From a virus, in the IMG/VR virus record IMGVR_UViG_3300048583_000155, positions 6,415 to 70,414 of that record: DNA of 64,000 nt. The stretch is one strand, 5' to 3'. Under the pieces are notes generated by a model, which made no database searches, was not told the DNA's origin, and saw only the letters and a program-made list of their open reading frames with translations. A program made the position numbers and the translations under genes. The first letter of the stretch is position 1. Each line of letters begins with the position of its first letter. This document shows positions 83-6,740 of the stretch, in pieces.

Positions 83-110
83 AATCCCGTCTAATCAACG
101 GGATTTTTTA
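83..110 (+). terminator. Rho-independent terminator-like hairpin
   Basis: AATCCCGT / ACGGGATT stem followed by a T run on +; lies at the end of the minus-strand lysis cassette. Confidence 0.55.
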
Positions 111-593
111 TTTCAACAATTTGAAAGCTACGATTCCGACAATAGCCAATCCAAGCAAAATCAAAGTGTTTCTGACATACTTCCAAATCTGTTTCAGTAT
201 ATTTTCTCTTTGCTCTACCACGATTCTTTCAACTTCAAATCGGTAAGTGTCTTTTTCCTGCAATAGAAATTTAATCATTTCTTCCTGTTTACCGCAGTAA
301 GCCGTCAGGTTTCCAAGTTCGTCAATAAGTATCCCGACTCTGGCTTTTGTTTCAGGGTCTTCTTTTATAAGAGTTCTCTGAATCGTTTCCCGACTTACTC
401 CTGACTTCAATAGCTTCTGAAGGCTGTCTATGTTAATTGAATTGGATTGTGCCTCAAACGCGGGAATAAGCACGTCTTTTTCGACTTCCCTGATTACAAC
501 CGAGTCTCTTACGGTTTTACTCTCGGTGATTACTTTTTGGCTATTGCAAGAAGCGAATAGCAATAATGCGATAATGATTATCCGGTTATCCAT
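108..593 (-). CDS. Probable unimolecular spanin (lipoprotein with C-terminal TM helix)
   Basis: Signal peptide with lipobox LFASC, C-terminal hydrophobic TLILLGLAIVGIVAF + KLLK, directly downstream of endolysin. Confidence 0.7.
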   Translation of the reverse strand: MDNRIIIIALLLFASCNSQKVITESKTVRDSVVIREVEKDVLIPAFEAQSNSINIDSLQKLLKSGVSRETIQRTLIKEDPETKARVGILIDELGNLTAYCGKQEEMIKFLLQEKDTYRFEVERIVVEQRENILKQIWKYVRNTLILLGLAIVGIVAFKLLK

Positions 594-1183
594 TGATAGT
601 ATTTTTTGGTTAATTCTTCACGTTCTTTTAATCCGTTCAATCCTCCGTTTACAGCCTGACTTACTCTTTGGATTGACGTATTGTCGATTCCTATGCAATG
701 TCTCCAAACATTATTCTTGTCGAAGTAGAATTTAGCACTCTCTAGCGCGTATTGATCTTCCGCTAAGTCAGGATTGGTCACTATTTCGGGATTACTAATA
801 TACTGACTGAAAGCTATGTAATTTGATTTTCCTGTTAATTGGATTGCTCCACGACCTCTGTATTTCCATCCGTCGTTTGGGTCGGTATTTCCCATCCGGT
901 TCCCGTAAACAATATTAGCGATTTCCTGCGGTTTTTTCTGAAATTTCTCAGCAGATTCTTCATCGAAATACTTACCAAATACACGTAACAAGGCTTCTTT
1001 TGAGTAGTTTAGATTTTCTTCAAACATCCTCCAATGACCTGTCTCATGGCCGCATTGGGCTAAAAAATGTGCTGCATGGATTGGACCCAATCCGAAATGT
1101 TTTTGGATTGCTTTTGCGGTATTTACCCCGAATATTCCGTCAGGATTTAAACCGACTTTACTTTGGATCGTTTTTAGGCTCAT
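578..1183 (-). CDS. Endolysin, glycoside hydrolase family 19, with short N-terminal peptidoglycan-binding segment
   Basis: AHFLAQCGHET, EENLNYS, DGWKYRGRGAIQLTGKSNY, VNGGLNGL motifs; N-terminal IQSKVGLNPDGIFG. Confidence 0.92.
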   Translation of the reverse strand: MSLKTIQSKVGLNPDGIFGVNTAKAIQKHFGLGPIHAAHFLAQCGHETGHWRMFEENLNYSKEALLRVFGKYFDEESAEKFQKKPQEIANIVYGNRMGNTDPNDGWKYRGRGAIQLTGKSNYIAFSQYISNPEIVTNPDLAEDQYALESAKFYFDKNNVWRHCIGIDNTSIQRVSQAVNGGLNGLKEREELTKKYYQWITG

Positions 1184-1352
1184 AAAATCTAGGTTTTGAA
1201 GGCTTGTTATTGGATTTGCGTATTAACATTTCACCCAACGCTTTATAATATTCTGAATCTAAATGAATTGGATCATAAATACTCCTAAAAGCAGTTTTTG
1301 AATTTTTTAATTTAGCTTTTATTTTCATCATTTTTCTTTTCTTTAGTCTCAC
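1158..1352 (-). CDS. Small basic hypothetical protein in lysis cassette (start uncertain)
   Basis: Fills the gap between holin and endolysin, overlapping both. Confidence 0.4.
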   Translation of the reverse strand: MRLKKRKMMKIKAKLKNSKTAFRSIYDPIHLDSEYYKALGEMLIRKSNNKPSKPRFYEPKNDPK

Positions 1353-1959
1353 AGATATCCGAATCAGCTATTTTCTTTATGAATTTATCCTCCACAACAT
1401 CTATAATCTTCCCGGCTAAGATAAATATGTATGGTTTCTTACCAAACGTGATTTCGATATTCTCTCCGATGCTGATAAATTCCCTGAATACAAGGATTAT
1501 AAAAATGAAATTACGGATAAAAGCGTTAATTAGCAACCCGTTTTCGTATGCCCAACCCGATTGATCGTCAAGCAGTTTGTTTACTTCAGCAAGCATCCAA
1601 AAAAAGAATACCGCCGAGAAGAATTTGTAAATCGTGTATGAGAATCCTTTGCTTGTACGTTTTTCACCTCTTGTTTTGGCAGCCATTACGCCCGTCAAAA
1701 AATCAGTGGTCATGAGTATTACCAAAAGAAAAATAAATGTGATCGAAATACCTAGAAAACTGCTGTTTACAGCCATTTCTACCATCAAAGAAATCGGAAA
1801 CCCGAGAATCATCAATGCGCCATGCTTATACGCAAAAGCGTTGTAAACCCATACAGATGAATACTTTAAAGATTCATAAATTCCATGTCCGAAACCGTAA
1901 ACAAATAAGCAGATATTAATTATTGCTTTGATGAATTTTGTGGTGAATGAGTTTAACAT
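1312..1959 (-). CDS. Holin (phage holin family 4-like)
   Basis: Several TM helices, LMTTDFLTGVMAA and REFISIGENI motifs, charged C-tail, upstream of endolysin. Confidence 0.75.
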   Translation of the reverse strand: MLNSFTTKFIKAIINICLFVYGFGHGIYESLKYSSVWVYNAFAYKHGALMILGFPISLMVEMAVNSSFLGISITFIFLLVILMTTDFLTGVMAAKTRGEKRTSKGFSYTIYKFFSAVFFFWMLAEVNKLLDDQSGWAYENGLLINAFIRNFIFIILVFREFISIGENIEITFGKKPYIFILAGKIIDVVEDKFIKKIADSDICETKEKKNDENKS

Positions 1960-2284
1960 ACCTGATAAATCCGAATATTAGCCCTGTTGTTATGATAATC
2001 CAAGCATACGTGTGATAGTAGTCTAAAGATATAAAATAATATGTTAGGTTAAAAATATTCATTGCACCCAATGAGATTATACAGACCTTGGAATACAAGC
2101 AAAATCTGTGAACAAAAGCATAAAAAAGCATATAAACAGTAGTTAGAATAGTACTTCCTGAAATTTGGCTTATCAAAAAATAATATTCAGAATACCACTC
2201 TGATTCATGATAAAAAAGGCAAATCCCGTTCACCAACAAAATGATAAACGGGATATCCCTTACAAGCACACTAAACTTTCTCAT
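1916..2284 (-). CDS. Four-TM membrane protein, unknown function
   Basis: About four hydrophobic segments; ATGA overlap with upstream peptide ORF; overlaps holin start. Confidence 0.75.
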   Translation of the reverse strand: MRKFSVLVRDIPFIILLVNGICLFYHESEWYSEYYFLISQISGSTILTTVYMLFYAFVHRFCLYSKVCIISLGAMNIFNLTYYFISLDYYHTYAWIIITTGLIFGFIRYVKLIHHKIHQSNN

Positions 2285-2379
2285 TTCTTAGGTTTTGGAA
2301 GTCCTCCGCCACCTCCGACGGGAGGAGGTGTTTCAGTGGTAGTGGTACTCACTTTCGGTTTTGTCTTTGGCTTTTTCAT
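2281..2379 (-). CDS. 32-aa peptide MKKPKTKPKVSTTTTETPPPVGGGGGLPKPKK (not in ORF track)
   Basis: Translated by hand; A-rich start context AAAAAATCATG; TGA stop overlaps ATG of next gene (ATGA). Confidence 0.7.
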   Translation of the reverse strand: MKKPKTKPKVSTTTTETPPPVGGGGGLPKPKK

Positions 2380-2441
2380 GATTTTTTCTTCTAATATAAT
2401 TATTTTTGAAGTGCTTCGCGCAATTTTTCCGCTTCTGACTT

Positions 2442-5400
2442 TTATTTTTTAGGCTTCTTATTTGACAAATACATTGCTTGCTTTAAAGTGTTATTCACAT
2501 CACGATAAAAAGGGATAGCACCCAAGTTACCAACAAACTGTAAGCCGTTAAGTTTCATTCTGTTTAAATACTCCCTCTCTTTCTTCTCTGTATCTACCAT
2601 AGTGTACATTTTTGTGTTCATTAGGATATCATGTGTAGCCTTCATTAAAGGAGAATATGGCCCTGCGGTTCGTGTAGCTATATTCACCCACCAATTATCG
2701 GAGAACGTTGGTTCTCTTGTTGGAATAATCGGAAAAGTCACCCCGTCTTTATAATTGTTATAAGTTCCTGTGTATGTGATATCTTCCCCGTATTTCATGT
2801 TCAAAAATTCAACCCCTAAATCAGTCGGAATTTTGGCCCAACTTCCTAGGTTTCTCTGAATTGCCAATGTAACCAAGATACTTACTAATGAATTTCCGAT
2901 ACTTGTTGATAAATCAATCTTCTTTTCTTCATCGTCATCTTCTAACCCAAACATGGACAATACTGCTGAATAGACTAATGGAGGTATGGTTTTGATAAGA
3001 AAACTATACACAGCCAATCTAGCCGACTGAGCTAACAATAATTTAGCGCCTTGTCCTCTAGTGAGTTTACCATTTCCGATAAGCGCATTTACAGCCGTCA
3101 AAGCCGTGACGTATTCGCCTACAGTAAACTTGTTCATGAATCCGGTAAACGTCTTATAGTAGGTGTCCCAAGTTGATTTGGAAGCATTCCTTTGGTTTCT
3201 AGGTATTCCCAAGAACTCATTTGATGAAGAAAACGATTCCTGAATCTGTTCGTCAGCCTCAAAACCTGCTTTTTCAAGGTTATTGAAATTTTCTTCCATA
3301 TAATCTTGGTCAGCGTCGGCTATTTTCTGAAAGTCAATATCTTTTCCCGACAGCCTCTTAAATTCGGTTGCAAGCACTCCGAAATAAATAGACTGAGATA
3401 CAATTTGGTCGGGAGAAGAAAGCGTAACGTCAGCAAGTTTATCCATTACTTGATAAACGTCCTTTAATTTTGAAATTTTGGTTTTTTCAAGTATTTCTGA
3501 AAGGTAGCTTTGATCTCCACGAAGCGGCGAGTATCCCGTGTTTCCTTTAGCGTCTCCAAACCTACTCGCAACGCCGGAAACATCAAACATACGGGTAAGT
3601 TCTACCGACTTCATATTTTTAGCCACAGAAGCGAGTAAATCTTTATTTTTCATGTGTTTAAGCATGATATTCATACCCAAAACAGACTCTTCCCATTTAT
3701 TAAGTCCTGCGTAAGTCACGTTTGACGCAAAATCAACGATTGGTCTTGTTATACCGCCTAGCAATCCTTGATAAGCCTTCTTCTCTATAAATGCAGATAA
3801 TGAAGATGATTGATTTGCAAACGAATTGCCCAACACGTTTTCCATTACGTTGTTGTAAATATTCGTAATCGCGCCGACGGTCTGTTTTTCAGAGTCATTG
3901 GTAGCCATTTTTGCTAAATGCTTAATGGTATGATTCACTTCTCGTACCGTAGAACTCATGTGGTAGTCAAGTAAAGTCTCTCTTGTGGACCATAAAAGAT
4001 TTTCAACCGAGTCAAATGTGATCGGGTGAGCCTGTTTTGTTTTGGCAATAAATGAACCTCCTTTTGTTGATGGGGAAGAATATCTGTTAATCAGGTCAAG
4101 CGCTTCTTTTTGAGCCTTGGATGAACCTTGCTTGTACTTTGATGGTGTAGGGAAATATTCGGGAGTTACCAGAACCCTGTTTCCGCGAACATTTGTTGTT
4201 CCCCAATCTACTTTTGGGCCAAGTTCGTTTCTGAAAGTATCAGTCATGTAATCAATCAGCGCGCGTCCTTCATTCGAAAGATTTGCGGTTGCTTTTTTTA
4301 CATCCAGTTCACCGTCAGTAGAATTGGCATCGAATATCTTTTTGAGTCCGTTCAGTGCATCTTGGTCATAAACACTCTCTGTCACACCTGCTTCAATAGT
4401 GGCTTCGAGATAGTCTTTGGCGCTTGGTTGGGAATTGTCGGCTTCATGTTGTCTTTGAAGTTTAATCATCGTAATCAAAGATGACTGCCTCCATTGATCG
4501 CTTGCCGAGATTTTGTCAAGAAGTCTTGTTGCTGCCCGTTCAATGCTGTTGAATTCAATATTTCTTTGCTCAATAGCCTGCCCGAGTTTCCAAAAGATTC
4601 CTTTTACAAGCTGTGAATCCTCGAAGTTACCCAACATTTTATCCATAGCGTAAAGCCCGGACCGTCTGATCTTTTCCTGAATTGTGGAGGTTTTTTTAAA
4701 TTTAGCTTTAATGGCGCTTATCCATTCAATCCAACTTCCCTTATACTTTGGAATAATCCAAAAAGAGTCCTTGGCCGACCTTGTGCCGTTGATTTCCTCG
4801 GTAAGTTTTACATGAAGATGCCCGATTATTCCGTTGGTCATATTCTGCATCAATCCGGCAACCTGTTTTACTTTTTTGAGCGAAAGTGATTGTAAATCTC
4901 CTTCGGTAATAGAATTGAAAGTTCGTACTACTTTGTTTTCATCTGCCGAAAATTGCGATCCGCTTTTTGGAAGAAACTGTTTTAAATCCATTGCATCAGC
5001 AATAGCGTCTTGTTTCATTTCTTCAATCTCAGCTTCGGTCAATCCTTCGTACTCGGTAGCGGTATTCAGTATCTCGGAACGCCTGTCTTTCATTAATTGG
5101 GCATCCTCGGACGTAATCATTCCATCCTGTAAAAGTTTCTCTACAGTCTTGGAATAACTCTCTCTAGTTGCGGGTTTTCCGTTTTCGTCTTTGTATTTTA
5201 CAATTACTTTCGGGGTATTTGCATATAATTCTGAAAGCTCAGAGACTTTTGTAGCGTCAGCCTCCACTTCTATCATTAAATCAGTAGCGTCCTGAATCAA
5301 AGCTGTTTTGGCTTTTGTTGACAATACGGTTTTTCTTTCCCCTATCTGCTTCAATAGAGAAATGTATTTCTCATACACCCTGACAGGAATTATCCTTGGA

Positions 5401-6740
5401 TTTACGCGCAAAAGTTGGTCAAGACTGCCGTTATGGTCAAGCAATCCGATTTTACCCTCTTTGATGTTGGTTTTAGCCTGAGCGACAAGACCTTTTGCAA
5501 TCTTAACCCTGTTTCTGCTTGCTGCCTTTCCAAGAATATCAAATATTTTGTCAATGGCGGTGTTTACAGTGTATTCGGTTTTGGCGTTTTTGATCTGAGA
5601 AAGGATTTTGTTTATCTCGGTTTTGGTGAACTCGTTTACCGGAAGGTCTTTTATGTCCATTTGGATAAATGAAATCATATTATCCTTTAGGTTCCTGAAC
5701 GCTTCTTTTTCTGCTTTTGCCTTATCCTTCAGTCCTTTGATTGCTTTCGACGCCTCTGTTTTGAGAGAATTTAGTTTCTTTTTGGCTTCCCGGCTTTTGG
5801 CTTCGATTATTTCTTCCAATCCCTGCTTAACCTGCTCATCCTTGGTCATGGATTTGTTTTCAGACATCACATTCTTTTTAGGAATGGATTTTCTTACTTC
5901 CTTGCCGATTTCTTTCAGGTATTCAGTATTGGCTTTTCCGAGTGGTTTTCCAAGGTTTGTCTCAATCTGTTTGATGGCCTCGGAAATCTGTAATCCTTTC
6001 AACTGGACATAATTACTCACCAAATCCACCAAGGTCTCATAGAATTTGATATCAGCTTCAGCTTTTGCCCGAAAATCGAACATGATTCCTGACTTATCTT
6101 CCTTTAGCTGTGATTTAATGCTTGCAATCAGTTCTTTTTGCCTCTTCTTTTTGGCTTCAATTGGAGTCGCGTCTTTAATACTTGAAGCCCGATATTTTGT
6201 GCCATCGTCAGTTATGATAAATTCACCCTGTTTTGTACCGGTAATCTGTTCTCCGAATACTGAGAATATTACTTTTTCTCCTTTAACTCCTTTATTTCCT
6301 TCTCCTGTTTTTCCACTGTCTGTTTCAGTATCTGAAGGTCGTTGAACATCTGTCTCAACAATAGTTTTTGATGCGGGTTTAGTATCGTTTGTTGGTTCAT
6401 TCACTAAAGTTTCTTCTTGAATTTCTGTGACAGGACTTATTTTTTCGGCTTTGGCTTCGGTTTTTGGCAACCGCACTTCTTTGGTTTCATTTTTCTTTGG
6501 CTCTAAGATTGTTTCTTTTTTAACTTTAACCGATTCGATTATAGGCTTCGGGTCAAACTTTGTCTTTTTGTAAGACTTGCCCAAGACTTCTCTTTTCAGA
6601 GATTCCATTTCTGAATGTATAGCTTGAAATTCAGTCAACGCAAGTTCCAAAGCAGCCGTTCTGTCCTGTTTTTCTGACTTACTGAACTTTTCCGCTAAAT
6701 GTGGTGCGTGTAACCTGATACAATCAATGGGGTTTTTCAT
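2442..6740 (-). CDS. Large (1432 aa) probable internal virion / ejection protein
   Basis: Size, helical Lys/Glu-rich N-half, hydrophobic C-terminal helices, position at end of podovirus-like morphogenesis operon. Confidence 0.6.
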   Translation of the reverse strand: MKNPIDCIRLHAPHLAEKFSKSEKQDRTAALELALTEFQAIHSEMESLKREVLGKSYKKTKFDPKPIIESVKVKKETILEPKKNETKEVRLPKTEAKAEKISPVTEIQEETLVNEPTNDTKPASKTIVETDVQRPSDTETDSGKTGEGNKGVKGEKVIFSVFGEQITGTKQGEFIITDDGTKYRASSIKDATPIEAKKKRQKELIASIKSQLKEDKSGIMFDFRAKAEADIKFYETLVDLVSNYVQLKGLQISEAIKQIETNLGKPLGKANTEYLKEIGKEVRKSIPKKNVMSENKSMTKDEQVKQGLEEIIEAKSREAKKKLNSLKTEASKAIKGLKDKAKAEKEAFRNLKDNMISFIQMDIKDLPVNEFTKTEINKILSQIKNAKTEYTVNTAIDKIFDILGKAASRNRVKIAKGLVAQAKTNIKEGKIGLLDHNGSLDQLLRVNPRIIPVRVYEKYISLLKQIGERKTVLSTKAKTALIQDATDLMIEVEADATKVSELSELYANTPKVIVKYKDENGKPATRESYSKTVEKLLQDGMITSEDAQLMKDRRSEILNTATEYEGLTEAEIEEMKQDAIADAMDLKQFLPKSGSQFSADENKVVRTFNSITEGDLQSLSLKKVKQVAGLMQNMTNGIIGHLHVKLTEEINGTRSAKDSFWIIPKYKGSWIEWISAIKAKFKKTSTIQEKIRRSGLYAMDKMLGNFEDSQLVKGIFWKLGQAIEQRNIEFNSIERAATRLLDKISASDQWRQSSLITMIKLQRQHEADNSQPSAKDYLEATIEAGVTESVYDQDALNGLKKIFDANSTDGELDVKKATANLSNEGRALIDYMTDTFRNELGPKVDWGTTNVRGNRVLVTPEYFPTPSKYKQGSSKAQKEALDLINRYSSPSTKGGSFIAKTKQAHPITFDSVENLLWSTRETLLDYHMSSTVREVNHTIKHLAKMATNDSEKQTVGAITNIYNNVMENVLGNSFANQSSSLSAFIEKKAYQGLLGGITRPIVDFASNVTYAGLNKWEESVLGMNIMLKHMKNKDLLASVAKNMKSVELTRMFDVSGVASRFGDAKGNTGYSPLRGDQSYLSEILEKTKISKLKDVYQVMDKLADVTLSSPDQIVSQSIYFGVLATEFKRLSGKDIDFQKIADADQDYMEENFNNLEKAGFEADEQIQESFSSSNEFLGIPRNQRNASKSTWDTYYKTFTGFMNKFTVGEYVTALTAVNALIGNGKLTRGQGAKLLLAQSARLAVYSFLIKTIPPLVYSAVLSMFGLEDDDEEKKIDLSTSIGNSLVSILVTLAIQRNLGSWAKIPTDLGVEFLNMKYGEDITYTGTYNNYKDGVTFPIIPTREPTFSDNWWVNIATRTAGPYSPLMKATHDILMNTKMYTMVDTEKKEREYLNRMKLNGLQFVGNLGAIPFYRDVNNTLKQAMYLSNKKPKK

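Follow-up and report, generated by a model that had tools for sequence, protein, structure and literature searches.

A conserved small open reading frame paired with a predicted four-helix membrane protein at the head of a phage lysis cassette

Phages of the Bacteroidota are a major cause of bacterial death both in the gut and during marine blooms. To our knowledge, the control of lysis has been worked out in a few coliphages and almost nothing is known of it in phages of the Bacteroidota. In phage lambda, S107 is a dual-start antiholin that differs from S105, a product of the same gene, by two extra N-terminal residues and an added positive charge. RIII of phage T4 is a folded protein of 82 amino acids (aa) that acts with the single-transmembrane (single-TM) holin T. 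Systems of the arbitrium AimP type consist of an exported pro-peptide with a signal sequence and an adjacent gene for a soluble intracellular receptor. In the account given in PMC3091744, LysA of phage P2 is a separate-gene antiholin with four transmembrane domains (TMDs), and in P2-like Burkholderia phages such an antiholin gene lies between a tail gene and the holin. RIII of T4 is described as a cytoplasmic antiholin (PMC8385771). The locus described here lies in a stretch of 64,000 nucleotides (nt) of virus record IMGVR_UViG_3300048583_000155 (bases 6415-70414 of 70,414; record rated 99% complete), hereafter called the window. It consists of a 32-aa open reading frame (ORF) and, directly behind it, the gene of a 122-aa predicted four-helix membrane protein (4-TM protein), which together stand at the head of a lysis cassette.

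The small ORF, its motif and its fused forms

The original prediction described a 32-aa ORF whose stop overlaps the start of a 122-aa 4-TM protein (ATGA), which in turn overlaps a holin; all of these details were correct when checked against the ORF coordinates and the helices of an AlphaFold2 model. DNA around relatives was drawn from metagenomes, viral contigs and one cultured phage, Polaribacter phage Freya (NC_062746, context L011). Merging of duplicates (L002 with L003; L007 and L008 with L004) left eight independent contexts, namely the window, L003, L004, L005, L006, L009, L010 and Freya. The contigs of relatives from four sequencing runs are fragments, none of which spans window positions 2284-2365. 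Something stands directly upstream of the 4-TM domain in all eight contexts, either as a separate ORF or as a fused tail. A separate ORF with a Gly run followed by Pro and Lys/Arg is present in six (window, 32 aa; L003, 34 aa; L004, 73 aa; L005, 57 aa; L010, 62 aa; Freya gp30, 49 aa and annotated as a hypothetical coding sequence), and in L006 MSSIGGSGGTKPPGK forms the N-terminus of the membrane protein itself. The expectation that homologues would carry the peptide upstream was thus borne out in seven of the eight contexts, six times as a separate gene and once as a fusion. Between the small ORF and the 4-TM start the overlap is 4 nt in the window, L003 and L005 and 8 nt in L004, L009 and L010, and in Freya the two abut directly; as read from the gene layout, the ATGA overlap of the window implies translational coupling of the small ORF with the 4-TM gene. 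In L003 the motif is placed 15 residues ahead of the stop. The Gly codons vary from locus to locus, so that selection appears to keep the amino-acid sequence, i.e. conservation is at the protein level. Sequence comparison across the contexts confirms the 32-aa ORF as a real conserved gene and not a chance frame.

Three other readings of the same nucleotides were tried and rejected. A programmed frameshift joining the small ORF to the 4-TM ORF is at odds with their relative frame, which is not constant (-1 in three lineages, +1 in another three, 0 in Freya), and in the window an in-frame stop lies just upstream. The Gly codons cannot well serve as the Shine-Dalgarno sequence of the 4-TM gene, being located 24-47 nt upstream of it and, in L006, downstream of the start. 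An 81-aa ORF on the opposite strand reads PPPPPTGGG off the complement of the Gly and Pro codons, and is for this reason regarded as a shadow frame and not a gene.

A family search with an alignment of the small proteins returned 35 proteins of 46-82 aa, a family defined by P-[IV]-G(4-7)-x-x-P-[KR]-P-[KP]. The core P-[IV]-G-G is present in 33 of the 35, and the usual tail, DPKPIGGGGGGGAPKPKP, is found at or close to the C-terminus. In alignment A5 of the small proteins P20, G22, G23 and P30 (numbering of the window peptide) are invariant and the other motif columns nearly so; most of the 35 members have no consecutive prolines. The long forms (57-82 aa) carry an extra N-terminal domain of about 40 residues, which AlphaFold2 models as an extended segment and two helices at a predicted local distance difference test score (pLDDT) of 92-97, with the tail disordered. 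A ribbon-helix-helix reading of this domain was considered from its secondary structure and is unsupported, since the structure search gave no Foldseek match and a best VIA-align Z of 3.1. The tail alone makes up the window peptide, which is the shortest version, as well as the L003 small protein and P0129; this points to the tail as the indispensable part. Neither the 32-aa ORF nor any member of the set of 35 begins with a hydrophobic stretch of the signal-sequence kind.

When 89 representatives of the 4-TM protein were read by eye, the motif was found clearly fused ahead of helix 1 in seven (P0010, P0021, P0023, P0026, P0040, P0090 and P0093) and in degenerate Pro/Gly/Lys versions in three more (P0032, P0036 and P0050). 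The fused tails are strongly basic and place the motif at residues 3-15 of the mature membrane protein. In P0021 the stretch before helix 1 contains GPIGGGLTEPWK three times in tandem, which suggests that the motif may be a short linear binding element with adjustable valency. Several fused members retain an internal Met at the ancestral start, and two isoforms from these are conceivable. Four over-long gene calls (P0007, P0008, P0015 and P0053) open with an out-of-frame reading of the Gly run, as confirmed for P0007 by the DNA of L010. Occurrence as split products in some lineages and as a fused product in others is a classic sign of two products working as one, and the tail and the 4-TM protein are read here in that way. 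The fusion to a cytoplasmic N-terminus and the lack of a signal sequence in the small proteins argue that the tail acts inside the cell. No fused form of at least 325 residues was found, which is a weak negative. The small-protein alignment found nothing when used as a query against viral contigs, and a DNA pattern for the full motif gave 0 matches there. The shorter pattern PIGGGGG gave at least 82 sites in at least 80 loci of the viral contigs; the matches listed were without exception Gly runs of unrelated proteins or frames, with no 4-TM homologue nearby, so that the bare pattern is unspecific and uninformative on the small-protein family.

The membrane protein, the cassette and RNA signals at the junction

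A word-indexed search with the 122-aa protein returned only six relatives, and a profile search of 1.84 billion representatives returned 89 clusters at E <= 1e-3, 42 of them at E <= 1e-10 and all of them unnamed. Neither the 122-aa protein (E <= 0.1 for the first three libraries) nor the 32-aa peptide had a match in Pfam, PHROGs, NCBIfam or PADLOC, and the protein atlas gave unnamed clusters only. Viral contigs yielded nothing to a single-sequence scan with the 4-TM protein or to sub-family 4-TM alignments used as queries. The species-representative prokaryote genomes gave no 4-TM match either, hence no prophage copy was seen in that set. Of two distant members searched by tblastn, one had no match and the other matched Freya only. 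Literature on holins and antiholins, lysis cassettes, Flavobacteriia phages and glycine-rich coupled proteins contained nothing that matches the pair, and for the Flavobacteriia only the Freya paper and its preprint were found; the statement in the original prediction that the layout is undescribed therefore stands for these libraries and this literature.

The AlphaFold2 model of the 122-aa protein, built on an 84-sequence alignment, has a mean pLDDT of 90.7 and a predicted template-modelling score (pTM) of 0.79. Its helices comprise residues 2-27, 31-42/46-58 (kinked), 63-84 and 90-121, and its outer loops are very short. The mean number of Lys and Arg residues over 84 members is 3.27 at the N-terminus, 0.56 in loop 1, 2.15 in loop 2, 0.36 in loop 3 and 2.80 at the C-terminus; by the positive-inside rule this distribution indicates a predicted N-in/C-in topology, with both ends and the middle loop cytoplasmic. 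The most conserved residues are P12 and C62 (81/84 each), N76 (75/84) and G43 (71/84). C62 lies within [RK]-x-C-x-[YF]-[ST] at the cytoplasmic start of helix 3. Foldseek gave no match of the model in PDB with E <= 0.001, and in BFVD the model matched uncharacterised phage proteins only (best E 1.4e-3), one of them from a crAss-like phage. VIA-align reached Z values of at most 8.6, with channel helix bundles, which is within the background for helical proteins. Complex prediction for the peptide and the 4-TM protein scored 0.02, below the mark, in a run made without controls, and is uninformative either way.

The gene directly behind the 4-TM gene is of a lysis type in all eight contexts. The original prediction expected a holin at this place, and this is so in three of them (window, L004 and L006), which carry a Pfam-recognised Phage_holin_4_1 holin; the other five (L003, L005, L009, L010 and Freya) carry a single-TM protein of 84-101 aa without family match. 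The 4-TM gene overlaps its downstream neighbour by 44 nt in the window (taking the first ATG as the holin start), by 56 nt in L004, and also in L003 and in Freya (20 nt). The endolysins behind the module come from four families: GH19 (window and, by eye, L003), Amidase_2 (L004), Peptidase_M15_3 (L005 and L010) and Phage_lysozyme (L009). They were located about 0.3-2.3 kb downstream in six of the eight contexts, five by family search and L003 by eye. The cassette thus keeps its head while the endolysins behind it are swapped, and for this reason the pair is assigned, as a proposal, to lysis control. In P0024 (183 aa) the 4-TM domain continues into the N-terminal region of a Phage_holin_4_1-like holin, which is 47% identical to the holin of L006 (E 3e-20); this single case could be a natural fusion or an assembly frameshift.

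In the five lineages with a single-TM protein, the 4-TM gene is followed by a conserved pair of unannotated genes (Table 1). The first product, 84-101 aa, has one N-terminal TM helix and a charged helical tail, and the second, 146-150 aa, is soluble, with a Cupin_2 match in Freya at 4e-7. This gene pair may be the holin or a regulator of those cassettes. In Freya, gp30-gp35 (NC_062746, 3827-5854) encode, in order, the small tail protein, the 4-TM protein, the single-TM protein, the cupin, a signal-peptide protein and a 144-aa protein without Pfam match; by synteny these genes look like its lysis region.

The other genes of the window cassette are listed in Table 1. The holin is 48% identical to that of L004, and tblastn with it gave no match in the phage collection. 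Neither the 64-aa ORF (Pfam, PHROGs, NCBIfam, PADLOC; no significant match) nor the 161-aa spanin-like protein (Pfam, PHROGs, NCBIfam) could be assigned to a family; L005 encodes a 168-aa protein that resembles the latter. Counterparts of the 1432-aa gene in relatives are tail or tail-fibre-like, and the one in Freya is annotated as 'tail protein'. Every gene in the first 7 kb of the window is on the minus strand and the strand of the genes switches past the 161-aa protein, so that the lysis cassette closes the late gene block. The GC content of the window is 38.2%. Its large terminase shares 28-30% identity with terminases of Flavobacterium, Cellulophaga, Tenacibaculum and Maribacter phages, and its endolysin is nearest to the annotated endolysin of Flavobacterium phage immuto (49% identity). 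Because these two proteins resemble those of flavobacterial phages, the host is probably a member of the Flavobacteriia. Among 50,697 phage records no close DNA relative of the window was found except for a 114-nt piece of the endolysin gene.

Table 1. Positions of features in the window and in related contexts
Feature	Location	Strand	Remarks
161-aa lipoprotein, unimolecular-spanin layout	108-593	-	N-terminal lipobox-like LFASC and C-terminal hydrophobic helix; from sequence features alone
201-aa GH19-type endolysin	578-1183	-	PHROG 181 endolysin, 4.4e-54; Pfam Glyco_hydro_19 match weak, under cut-off
64-aa very basic soluble ORF	1158-1352	-	Between holin and endolysin, overlapping both
215-aa holin, Phage_holin_4_1	1312-1959	-	Pfam E 6e-10, above cut-off
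122-aa four-helix inner-membrane protein (predicted)	1916-2284	-	
81-aa ORF opposite small ORF (rejected)	2207-2452	+	
13-bp RNA hairpin with U-rich tail	2223-2254	-	Codons 11-21 of the 4-TM gene
ATGA stop/start overlap	2281-2284	-	TGA of small ORF, ATG of 122-aa gene
32-aa small ORF	2281-2379	-	MKKPKTKPKVSTTTTETPPPVGGGGGLPKPKK
Motif-coding part of small ORF	2284-2328	-	PPPVGGGGGLPKPKK; Gly codons GGA GGT GGC GGA GGA
Promoter-like site	2391-2423	-	TTG-N22-TATATTAG; in the gap after the 1432-aa gene
Gap between 1432-aa gene and 32-aa ORF			62 nt
1432-aa protein, last large gene upstream of the module	2442-6740	-	PHROG 32588 (unknown function), 6e-29
Hairpin in L003	L003:627-675		Within first ~25 codons of 4-TM gene
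Hairpin in L005	L005:1893-1944		Within first ~25 codons of 4-TM gene
Hairpin in L009	L009:1169-1220		Within first ~25 codons of 4-TM gene
Hairpin in L010	L010:757-781		Within first ~25 codons of 4-TM gene
Gene pair after 4-TM gene, L003	L003:922-1609		
Gene pair after 4-TM gene, L005	L005:2168-2906		
Gene pair after 4-TM gene, L009	L009:1415-2150		
Gene pair after 4-TM gene, L010	L010:1063-1756		
Gene pair after 4-TM gene, Freya	L011:4305-4992		

An RNA hairpin lies 27-60 nt into the 4-TM gene of the window and was flagged as terminator-like; the terminator scan flagged it in the window only and not in the relatives. Its strength was compared with that of 500 redraws in which the protein was held fixed and synonymous codons were drawn from local codon usage. 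Five contexts were positive, with Z values of -3.66 (window), -3.80 (L003), -5.28 (L005), -4.71 (L009) and -3.62 (L010) and at most 3 of the 500 redraws folding as well as the native sequence, and no effect was seen in L004 (-1.81), Freya (-1.07) and the fused L006 (0.02). One stem position in the group of L003, L005 and L009 reads G-C, C-G and U-A; RNAalifold on five sequences gave no net covariation support for the hairpin. As to its role, the hairpin may attenuate the operon, act as a pause site or tune coupling, and it leaves some room for a leader peptide as a minority or additional explanation. The promoter-like TTG site noted upstream in the original prediction is present, with one mismatch to TAnnTTTG, which we take to be the consensus of the Bacteroidota -7 box. 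Counting both strands, the 64-kb window contains 29 occurrences of the relaxed pattern TTG-N17-23-TAnnTTnG, and a sigma-70 scan found nothing at the site on the minus strand. Among relatives, the small ORF overlaps the gene before it or directly adjoins it (spacing -4 nt in L005, 2 nt in L010), hence a promoter at this position is not a conserved part of the module.

Readings of the pair

The best reading, drawn from gene position and the fusions, is that the small ORF and the 4-TM protein form one unit of the late lysis operon that modulates holin timing, either as a partner of the holin or as an antiholin-type regulator; it is put forward as plausible but tentative. The antiholin-type half of the original prediction is kept in this form, and its ligand/sensor half does not fit. 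The 4-TM protein would be an inner-membrane protein whose two ends face the cytoplasm, and the small protein would be a soluble cytoplasmic product. The essential part of the latter would be its disordered tail, in which a Gly run precedes Pro/Lys. This tail would be supplied in trans by translational coupling, as in the window, or in cis as an N-terminal extension, as in other lineages, and would act on the 4-TM protein at its cytoplasmic face, or through that face, presumably by contact. The pair would in turn modulate the firing time of the adjacent holin, possibly by touching it, with a logic comparable to that of a separate-gene antiholin with a cytoplasmic co-factor.

Several observations weigh against a role in lysis timing. 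What points to lysis is gene position, the gene overlaps and a single holin fusion that is itself a possible sequencing frameshift. The junction between tail and lysis modules is a common insertion site for accessory genes. No sequence or profile similarity links the 4-TM family to the described holin and antiholin families of Pfam, PHROGs and NCBIfam, and comparison with the adjacent holin gave an hhalign probability of 0.08. The two unrelated types of downstream partner fit a generic role better than the binding of a specific holin. In L009 the small ORF is retained but ends KPIA and has lost the Gly run. The hairpin in the 4-TM gene points to RNA-level selection at the same junction. No endolysin was recognised near the module of Freya, and Table 3 of the Freya paper lists no lysis genes for this phage (PMC8776804).

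A role of the 4-TM protein as the pore former, a holin or co-holin in its own right, is considered unlikely. Here the Gly-run/Pro-Lys tail would be a cytoplasmic gating or charge domain, akin to the added N-terminal charge of lambda S107 relative to S105, or a ball-and-chain plug in cis or in trans. The protein does fit the general layout of holins in its TMDs, its charged C-terminus and its place near the endolysin; it is small, with a basic C-terminus, and is conserved while the endolysin types change. In five of the eight contexts (L003, L005, L009, L010 and Freya) there is no Pfam-recognised holin and the 4-TM protein is the only multi-helix membrane protein beside the endolysin region, and the strongly basic fused tails would suit a charge domain. 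However, in the window, L004 and L006 the very next gene encodes a canonical holin, so that a second one is unneeded there. The absence of similarity to any holin family in the three libraries named above also speaks against a pore former, as do the structure matches, which are generic helical bundles only.

A late membrane function unrelated to lysis timing, e.g. superinfection exclusion or an accessory gene at the tail/lysis boundary, is likewise judged unlikely. It would agree with the constant position of the module after the last tail-type gene, with the lack of any family annotation for the pair and with the varying downstream partner. It is opposed by the overlap with a downstream lysis-type gene in several lineages, the fusion of P0024 to a holin, the retention of the module while four endolysin families were exchanged and the lack of any PADLOC match.

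A combined version is distinctly doubtful. In it the detachable cytoplasmic tail would gate the 4-TM protein ball-and-chain-like in cis or in trans, and the hard-to-translate tail codons, with the hairpin, would tie expression of the lysis operon to the translational state of the host. If true, a single short sequence would be a working part of the protein and, at the same time, an attenuator that senses translation, and the timing of lysis would be tied to the physiology of the flavobacterial host.

It is quite improbable that the small ORF is mainly a cis-acting leader, in which the Pro/Gly/Lys end slows ribosomes before the junction and, with the hairpin, sets transcription or translation of the lysis operon, the peptide itself being functionless. 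Such a leader would account for the stop/start overlap in six of the seven unfused contexts, for the location of the conserved part at the 3' end of the small ORF and for a hairpin beyond the need of the protein in five of eight contexts (Z -3.6 to -5.3), which in the window has a U-rich tail and a terminator-like flag and is absent from the fused L006 (Z 0.02). However, in the fused proteins the motif lies at residues 3-15 of the mature product, where the growing chain has not yet the length to exert an effect from the exit tunnel. The N-terminal domain of the long forms is modelled as folded with high confidence, the L003 motif ends well ahead of the stop and consecutive prolines are absent from most family members. 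Neither the terminator scan of the relatives nor the covariation analysis lends the hairpin further support.

A secreted peptide with a membrane sensor, serving communication between infections as the original prediction had suggested, is very improbable: the only point in its favour is that a small peptide and a small membrane protein occur as a pair, but a signal sequence is missing from all 35 small proteins, the tail is fused in several lineages to an N-terminus that the 84-member charge counts place in the cytoplasm, and the outer loops of the 4-TM model are very short. A chance untranslated frame would suit the short length and low complexity of the 32-aa ORF but is hardly credible, as the motif is conserved at the protein level with varying codons across independent lineages and in fusions, and its equivalent is annotated as a coding sequence in Freya.

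Comparison with described systems

This analysis defines two linked, undescribed families, that of the small proteins, with their very sharp motif, and that of the 4-TM proteins, in which one cysteine is near-invariant. Both mark the start of lysis cassettes and are therefore usable for locating such cassettes. In Freya, the one cultured relative, no lysis genes had been recognised before, as far as Table 3 of its description goes (PMC8776804). The natural split and fused versions, together with a culturable phage-host pair that carries the module (Freya and Polaribacter sp. HaHaR_3_91), make the function directly testable.

The pair of Freya, gp30 and gp31, is the closest counterpart and the only one from a cultured phage in the phage collection searched. 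A 49-aa ORF ending in SIPGGGLKNPQKDKE abuts a 115-aa homologue of the 4-TM protein and follows the tail protein gene. It differs in that both products are annotated as hypothetical and that the downstream gene encodes a single-TM protein and not a Phage_holin_4_1 holin. The window pair resembles P2 LysA in having a small four-TMD protein encoded by its own gene in the lysis cassette, and, as in the Burkholderia phages, this gene is located between a tail gene and the holin (PMC3091744). In contrast, LysA as portrayed in that source has no coupled or fused Gly-run tail and belongs to phages of a different host group, and no sequence relation between the two was detected, as judged by the absence of a family-library match. 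In T4, according to the account of RI and RIII in PMC8385771, lysis timing is likewise set by accessory proteins, one of which is small and cytoplasmic and acts on the cytoplasmic side of the holin system.

RIII is a folded protein, whereas here a disordered Gly/Pro/Lys tail is tied to a 4-TM protein, and no homology between the two was found. As with S107 and S105 of lambda, a short positive N-terminal addition would alter the behaviour of a lysis membrane protein; in lambda, however, the addition is two residues of the same gene, and in the present family it is a conserved motif, some 15 residues long, that can stand as a gene of its own. Systems of the arbitrium type differ in both components, since the small ORF has no signal sequence and its neighbour is a 4-TM protein without family match instead of a soluble receptor. 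By its gene content and position the pair would join a known class, the accessory membrane proteins of lysis cassettes, within which its distinctive feature would be a tail that is either split off or fused.

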